A DNA stretch of 291 nt from Escherichia coli. Its GTDB lineage: Bacteria; Pseudomonadota; Gammaproteobacteria; Enterobacterales; Enterobacteriaceae. The notes under the pieces were generated by a model. That model saw only the letters and a list, made by a program, of their open reading frames with translations, was not told the DNA's origin and did no database searches. The stretch lies in the NCBI RefSeq assembly GCF_003334255.1, contig NZ_QOWU01000271.1; one strand, written 5' to 3'. The position numbers and the translations under genes were made by a program. Below are positions 1-291 of this stretch, piece by piece (the first letter of the stretch is position 1; every line of letters begins with the position of its first letter).

Positions 1-20
1 CTGACGTAAAAAACAGTCAG
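1..20. repeat. Short inverted repeat: CTGAC (1..5) and GTCAG (16..20), 5-bp stem around a 10-nt A-rich loop (GTAAAAAACA); cut by the window edge, so any longer stem cannot be assessed
   Basis: Direct reading: the reverse complement of CTGAC is GTCAG; the stem does not extend (G6 versus A15). The A6 run (8..13) reads as T6 on the minus strand. Confidence 0.3.
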
Positions 21-98
21 TGGGCGAGTGGATACATCGTTGCCGCCAGACAACAACCCATACTTTTGGTTTGCCGGGTATTGGCGCGCCAGTCGTGC

Positions 99-291
99 TC
101 AACTCCGGCTACAGCCAAAATTGCGCTCACCGGTGCAGTGAGCTTTGGTATGTTCCTTCGCCAGATAGTCAGCACGTTCCAGCACCTGCTGAAAGCCAGT
201 GTCATCATCGCGTTCCAGCCACACCGCCGGCCAGGCCGGAAAATGCACCAGCGTGGCATGGCACCCGACATCCACTCCCAGGGCACTGCAC
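99..291 (-). CDS. C-terminal fragment of a hypothetical protein; 5' end lies beyond the window (past position 291); stop TGA at plus 101..99. First complete codon starts at plus 290. Peptide read from the window: CSALGVDVGCHATLVHFPAWPAVWLERDDDTGFQQVLERADYLAKEHTKAHCTGERNFGCSRS*
   Basis: Hand translation of the reverse complement in the frame starting at plus 290 gives 63 sense codons then TGA. Codon usage fits enterobacterial genes (CTG x5, GTG x3, CCG, GCG, GAA; only one rare codon, CGG). First codon positions are G-rich (about 40%) and amino-acid composition is balanced. The two other minus-strand frames either stop early (TGA at plus 210..208) or give a W/R/C-rich product. I could not assign a family from memory. 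Confidence 0.55.
   Translation of the reverse strand, partial: CSALGVDVGCHATLVHFPAWPAVWLERDDDTGFQQVLERADYLAKEHTKAHCTGERNFGCSRS

Follow-up and report, generated by a model that had tools for sequence, protein, structure and literature searches.

The 89-amino-acid open reading frame (ORF) on the minus strand at positions 17..286 of the window, the whole 291-nt stretch of Escherichia coli DNA analysed here, is a shadow ORF and not a gene. With a probability of about 95%, positions 99..291 are the 3' end of a real minus-strand gene of the YagK/YfjJ family (full coding sequence 99..668, 189 amino acids) carried by a CP4-type or SRL-type island, and the ORF at 17..286 is open by chance, in the +1 frame relative to this gene, and runs on into the downstream spacer. 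The gene is already known and correctly annotated in public records. For annotation the matter is one of quality control only; RefSeq already calls the 189-amino-acid gene in every copy inspected. An annotator using only the complete ORF of this fragment would enter a spurious 89-residue "hypothetical protein" and miss the C-terminus of a known and widespread island protein.

The window is 100% identical to E. coli chromosomes including that of strain Nissle 1917, and a search of 5,426 complete E. coli genomes found matches to it in 3,571. The ORF listed for it (hereafter the track ORF) begins with GTG and closes with a TGA at 19..17, and the preliminary description gave its coordinates, strand and start codon correctly. 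One base out of register with it, on the same strand, lies a frame with its first full codon at 290 (the 290 frame), which is open for 63 codons and ends with a TGA at 101..99, 82 nt before the track ORF ends at position 17. Measured from stop to stop, the track frame spans 95 codons (window 304..20), the upstream TGA lying at window 307..305. The features of the window are the following.

99..291, minus strand: C-terminal 63 codons and stop of the real gene (WP_000221530.1); placed by RefSeq, Pfam, the intact frame, pN/pS and codon score.
99..101, minus strand: TGA stop of the real gene; a stop codon is found here in 11 of 11 E. coli copies.
156..167, minus strand: codons of Tyr168-Leu-Ala-Lys171 (TAT CTG GCG AAG), the invariant YxxK motif with the candidate catalytic tyrosine; placed by alignment and structure model.
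17..286, minus strand: 89-amino-acid track ORF, a +1-frame shadow that runs 82 nt into the spacer; judged by stops in other copies, pN/pS, codon score and lack of homologues.
1..98, no strand: non-coding spacer that separates the Gp2-family gene from the zinc-ribbon gene downstream, without annotation.
1..291, plus strand: second shadow ORF in the in-register antisense frame (codon starts 102, 105, ...), open across the whole window and part of a 171-amino-acid ORF in Nissle.

The annotation gives the frame of the real gene. RefSeq places a coding sequence (CDS) of 570 nt and 189 amino acids on the minus strand at window 99..668 (6099..6668 in the locus coordinates of Nissle 1917 and ATCC 11775), named "inovirus Gp2 family protein" with accession WP_000221530.1 in both strains, and a 570-nt CDS is annotated in the 290 frame in 11 of 11 copies inspected. 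The central claim of the preliminary description, that the track ORF is a frame shadow and that the real frame is shifted by one base and ends 82 bp earlier, is borne out by this CDS, which has exactly that frame and that stop. Upstream of the window the 290 frame does not run into an early stop; it continues to an ATG at window 668 (6668 in the Nissle locus), outside the window, with GGAG 8 nt upstream of it. An alternative GTG further upstream, at window 704 (6704 in the Nissle locus), would give 201 amino acids and is used by a few database entries. Met1 is conserved in at least 90% of the homologues, and in sequence terms this conservation favours the ATG over the GTG.

The absence of the 290 frame from the ORF list had been attributed solely to a start codon lying outside the window. 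The start does lie outside; the frame can, however, also be called within the window, where an internal GTG at 275 opens a 58-amino-acid ORF (99..275), and it is missing from the list because this version falls just below the default cut-off of 60 amino acids.

The two frames differ in composition and codon usage. The 89-residue peptide of the track ORF contains seven Trp, five Cys and nine Arg residues, so that the earlier count was right for cysteine and slightly off for the other two (six Trp and about ten Arg had been given), while its tally of rare codons (CGG four times, AGG twice, and CGA, ATA and GGA once each) was accurate. G occupies 41% of the first codon positions in the 290 frame versus 27% in the track frame. 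Using a codon log-likelihood model trained on 45 genes, all annotated and intact, that lie in one 50-kb segment of the Nissle chromosome, we obtained +16.0 bits for the 290 frame over 63 codons; 63-codon windows of real genes give 16.3 ± 6.3 bits, 5.6 to 27.0 being their 5-95% range. With -11.6 bits the track frame falls outside this range, and the in-register antisense frame of the plus strand scored +3.9 bits. The description of the 290 frame as having G-rich first positions and preferred codons stands, and frame scoring, which had been put forward as a check, separates the two minus-strand frames in the expected direction.

Homology separates them as well. The full 189-residue protein matches the Pfam family PF11726 from end to end (model positions 1-170 of 170, E 1.1e-47, 162.6 bits), and the 63-residue fragment encoded in the window suffices on its own to match model positions 107-170 (E 3e-12) and, among the PHROGs, phrog_25019 (E 7e-9). 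The 89-residue peptide, in contrast, had no match in Pfam (best i-E 0.21), NCBIfam, PHROG or PADLOC. The 189-residue protein had no match in NCBIfam or in PADLOC (defence systems) either, and the name given by RefSeq is thus without NCBIfam HMM support here. In a collection of about 15 billion predicted proteins, the exact 189-residue sequence occurs on at least 1000 contigs and belongs to a cluster with 2,204 members, and the exact 89-residue sequence is absent.

The same division appeared in tblastn searches of 72,556 plasmid records. The 63-residue peptide found 48 records from seven genera (Escherichia, Klebsiella, Citrobacter, Salmonella, Raoultella, Leclercia and Enterobacter), 40 of them below 60% identity, and relatives below 60% identity came from all six genera besides Escherichia. 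The genes matched were mostly annotated as Gp2-family, and a plasmid-borne gene annotated yagK shares 43% identity over the 63-residue part. For the 89-residue peptide only seven records were found, all at 79% identity or more, that is, near-identical DNA. All checks proposed in the preliminary description, homology among them, came out in favour of its reading: the 63-residue peptide has distant relatives, and the 89-residue peptide has no homologue of its own.

At E <= 1e-3, an HMMER scan of 1.84 billion cluster representatives (50%-identity clusters) yielded 700 relatives of the 189-residue protein, and in those of full length at 35-50% identity the alignment extends through residues 187-189. 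In an alignment of 108 sequences, whose members are 32-49% identical to the query, 76 (the query included) share a common last position, and no sequence falls short of it by more than one residue; the part encoded in the window and the rest of the protein are conserved to the same degree (mean identity 0.38 versus 0.40). The protein WP_000221530.1 is accordingly a member of the PF11726 YagK/YfjJ family, formerly "Inovirus Gp2", which comprises the E. coli K-12 paralogues YagK in CP4-6 and YfjJ in CP4-57 as well as orf39 of the Shigella SRL island. It agrees with the family in length, in its C-terminus and in an island neighbourhood like that of SRL orf39 (PMC6980539). It differs from some relatives, which reach 210-240 amino acids, in consisting of the domain alone without an extra N-terminal region.

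We compared 11 copies of the locus, namely Nissle 1917 (L001), ATCC 11775 (L002) and nine further E. coli at 89-98% DNA identity. The 290 frame is intact in all 11, with 189 amino acids and the same stop. The track frame is intact in seven of them; two copies (L004 and L005) carry an in-frame TGA, and in two others (L008 and L009) the DNA ceases to be homologous at window position ~97, directly beyond the real stop, so that the track frame there acquires an unrelated tail and an earlier stop. Across the whole CDS, variable columns are distributed over the three codon positions as 31/26/68 (chi-square p 3e-6). In the window part alone the distribution is 18/16/27, which is not significant (p 0.18), and the whole CDS and pN/pS were needed. 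Pooled Nei-Gojobori estimates of pN/pS for the real frame are 0.41 in the window part and 0.30 in the whole CDS, versus 0.99 and 1.26 for the track frame, and the two shifted frames range over 0.99-1.30; as the 11 copies are related and mosaic, these figures describe a pattern and not independent samples.

Variability is uneven along the real gene. It is highest in the C-terminal third (window 102..290), where it reaches about twice the level of the N-terminal third (54 versus 26 variable columns of 189, eight copies), with pN/pS of 0.41 versus 0.21. Two alternative sequence blocks were seen in the C-terminal third, for example TGFQQVLERADYLAKEHTKAHC and AGLRDMLKRADYLAKEYTKVNG; on comparison of the copies, these blocks suggest allelic mosaicism around the invariant YLAK motif.

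The surroundings of the gene are those of a genomic island. Within a 12-kb stretch, its neighbours are an AlpA-type helix-turn-helix (HTH) regulator, Hha, zinc-ribbon proteins, a YeeP-type GTPase and insertion sequence (IS) elements; no integrase gene was found within the 12 kb inspected. Judged by these neighbours, the location is of the kind typical of the PF11726 family, an integrase/AlpA-type island or cryptic prophage. In the Shigella SRL island, a phytase-like esterase, IS66, orf39 (YfjJ-like, Gp2 family), Hha, a Vis/AlpA regulator and a YfjP/YeeP GTPase are found together (PMC6980539), and comparison with that report showed that the layout of the Nissle locus matches SRL orf34-46, with orf39 and its neighbours. 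According to another report (bioRxiv 10.1101/2024.08.29.610337), the intY/alpA islands of Pseudomonas probably count an "Inovirus Gp2-like" gene among their core genes.

Among the alternatives to the main reading, the one that survives best accepts the Gp2-family frame and takes the gene for a functionless relic of a decayed island or cryptic prophage that drifts neutrally. We consider this improbable. The setting would suit such a relic, since IS elements and pseudogenes surround the locus in Nissle and ATCC 11775 and the K-12 relatives YfjJ and YagK, both in cryptic prophages, are listed among the uncharacterised prophage genes of that strain (PMC11551758); the rather variable C-terminal third described above and the survival in E. 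coli B of a mere 114-nt remnant of the locus could likewise be read as decay. Neutral drift is, however, hard to reconcile with a 189-residue frame that stays intact in 11 of 11 copies differing by up to 11% in DNA, with a pN/pS of 0.30 over the CDS, and with six residues conserved without exception in 108 sequences that are 32-49% identical to the query. Of 5,426 complete E. coli genomes, moreover, about 3,500 carry the gene; where a genome shows any match, the median number of places is two. As far as sequence comparison can tell, the relic interpretation is weakened by the intact frames, the low pN/pS and the invariant residues.

Far less credible is a genuine 89-residue gene at 17..286, whether in place of the Gp2-family gene or overprinted in its +1 frame. 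In its favour, the frame has a GTG start and runs for 95 codons between stops, it is intact in seven of the 11 copies, and the part of it that lies in the spacer (within window 1..98) varies little among the eight copies that share it. Against this stand the in-frame TGA of L004 and L005, the unrelated tail and earlier stop of L008 and L009, a pN/pS of 0.99, a codon score of -11.6 bits where real genes give 5.6 to 27.0, the lack of any family match with tblastn returning near-identical DNA only, and the absence of the exact sequence from the ~15 billion predicted proteins. The length of the ORF is itself unremarkable, since such off-frame open stretches are common in real genes: in the 45 Nissle genes (13,455 codons), the +1 frame is open for at least 60 codons in 30 cases and for at least 90 codons in five. 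An overlapping +1-frame gene was rejected as contradicted by conservation, selection and homology. The 89-residue ORF instead resembles known shadow ORFs in overlapping a real gene in the +1 frame, in its atypical composition and rare codons, and in having neither conservation nor homologues. It departs from them in that its final 27 codons lie beyond the real stop, in the spacer, and it is thus part shadow and part intergenic read-through.

A third alternative reverses the roles, making the plus-strand ORF across the window (171 amino acids in Nissle, L001 5805..6320) the real gene and the minus-strand readings shadows of it. This was also rejected, as contradicted by the conservation, selection and homology results, and has next to nothing to recommend it. 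Of the ORFs that touch the window, the plus-strand one is second in length to the Gp2-family ORF, and its codon score is slightly positive (+3.9 bits); its open length, however, ranges from 52 to 302 codons among the copies, it is annotated in none of the 11 records, and the frame to which it is antisense in register shows strong homology and constraint. An in-register antisense frame is often open because its stops need the rare sense codons TTA, CTA and TCA. This second shadow ORF is longer than the track ORF.

Returning to the Gp2-family gene, the invariant residues of its product point to a possible function. Six positions are invariant in the 108 aligned sequences: E85, H94, H96, W126, Y168 and K171. 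The two histidines, H94 and H96, form an HUH motif together with Y95, which is present in 88% of the 108 sequences; this motif and E85 are encoded upstream of the window. The window itself encodes the YxxK motif Y168-L-A-K171, likewise invariant, with the Y168 codon at 167..165 and the K171 codon at 158..156. In an AlphaFold2 model of the protein (pLDDT 96.3, pTM 0.91), the HxH lies on a strand (residues 93-102) and Y168 lies in a helix (156-170), with K171 directly after it. Secondary matches of the protein point in a similar direction: one to PF23343, Replication-associated protein ORF2/G2P (E 4.7e-5), and a weak one to phrog_2969, replication initiation protein (E 0.013). A Foldseek search of the model against the PDB gave no match at E <= 1e-3, and no sequence relatives were found in the PDB with either the single protein or the 108-sequence profile.

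Taken together, the motifs and the model incline us, by a modest margin over even odds, to predict that the 189-residue protein is a small single-domain HUH endonuclease of the Rep class with a single catalytic tyrosine. In such an enzyme, Glu85 and His94-x-His96 would hold a divalent metal, and Tyr168, the tyrosine of the YxxK motif, would cleave one DNA strand site-specifically and remain covalently bound to its 5' end. This proposed chemistry is that of rolling-circle initiators such as filamentous-phage gpII, AAV Rep and plasmid RepB, and a nickase of this kind would plausibly serve the replication or mobilisation of the excised island.

With the known Rep-class HUH endonucleases (the filamentous-phage gpII, parvovirus NS1 and AAV Rep nuclease domains, pMV158 RepB, SIRV1 ORF119, the HUH domain of Helitrons and TnpA-REP), the protein shares the order of motifs, from the acidic E85 through H-x-H (H94, H96) on a beta strand to YxxK (Y168, K171) at the end of a C-terminal helix, as well as the ORF2/G2P relationship suggested by its weak match to PF23343. 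A similar Glu/His/His/Tyr arrangement was reportedly described in AAV5 Rep by Hickman et al. in 2002. The protein differs from these enzymes in having only 9-15% sequence identity to them, in lacking a helicase or oligomerisation domain, and in being encoded in chromosomal islands and not by a virus or plasmid.

A broader proposal would be that the YagK/YfjJ ("inovirus Gp2") proteins, which most E. coli genomes encode, are as a family active single-tyrosine HUH nickases that start rolling-circle replication or transfer of excised CP4/SRL-type islands. We regard this putative role as tentative and, on present evidence, rather doubtful; our literature search found no experimental work on any member of the family. 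If they are nickases, the "cryptic" CP4/SRL-type elements would have an unrecognised replication or mobilisation step. The shadow ORF has no part in this proposal, and the wider interest of the locus lies in a very common E. coli island family with an invariant HUH/YxxK signature and a possibly Rep-like predicted fold.

The spacer downstream of the gene (window 1..98) was searched for elements of its own. Nothing is annotated there in Nissle 1917 or ATCC 11775, an Rfam search of 3.5 kb around the window returned no match, and a promoter scan found no promoter-like site. The terminator scan found none on the minus strand; its single terminator-like hairpin lies on the plus strand inside the CDS and is at chance level. 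Folded as RNA or DNA, the 3' spacer did no better than shuffled sequences, with z 0.29 for window 1..98, and no inverted repeats were found in it, results that give no support for a terminator, a small RNA or a hairpin origin in the spacer. Repeats in the window amount to short chance pairs.

What does set this region apart is its low variability. Only 10 of the 98 spacer columns vary among the eight copies that share it, and the least variable part of the locus is the non-coding stretch at window about -100..50 (L001 5900-6050), with 3, 3 and 1 variable columns per 50 nt, versus 8-20 per 50 nt in the C-terminal third of the CDS (eight copies in both cases). Copies of the L008/L009 type have the downstream stretch replaced outright from window ~97. 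The low variability of the spacer could reflect mosaic recombination; alternatively, the spacer may act as a cis site for the putative nickase or as a leader or regulatory region of the zinc-ribbon gene downstream. If the nickase reading is true, the stretch at about -100..50 might hold the nick site.

Directly downstream of the Gp2-family gene, on the same strand, are two overlapping zinc-ribbon genes (L001 5016..5839, minus), and each of the 11 copies inspected has an annotated zinc-ribbon gene at this place. The zinc-ribbon genes and the putative nickase may form a conserved module. In E. coli B (NZ_CP115178.1, 1999491-1999604) only window 1..114 is kept, as 114 nt with 99.1% identity and nothing annotated; with the spacer and a few final codons of the gene left in this remnant, the rest of the island would seem to have been deleted.
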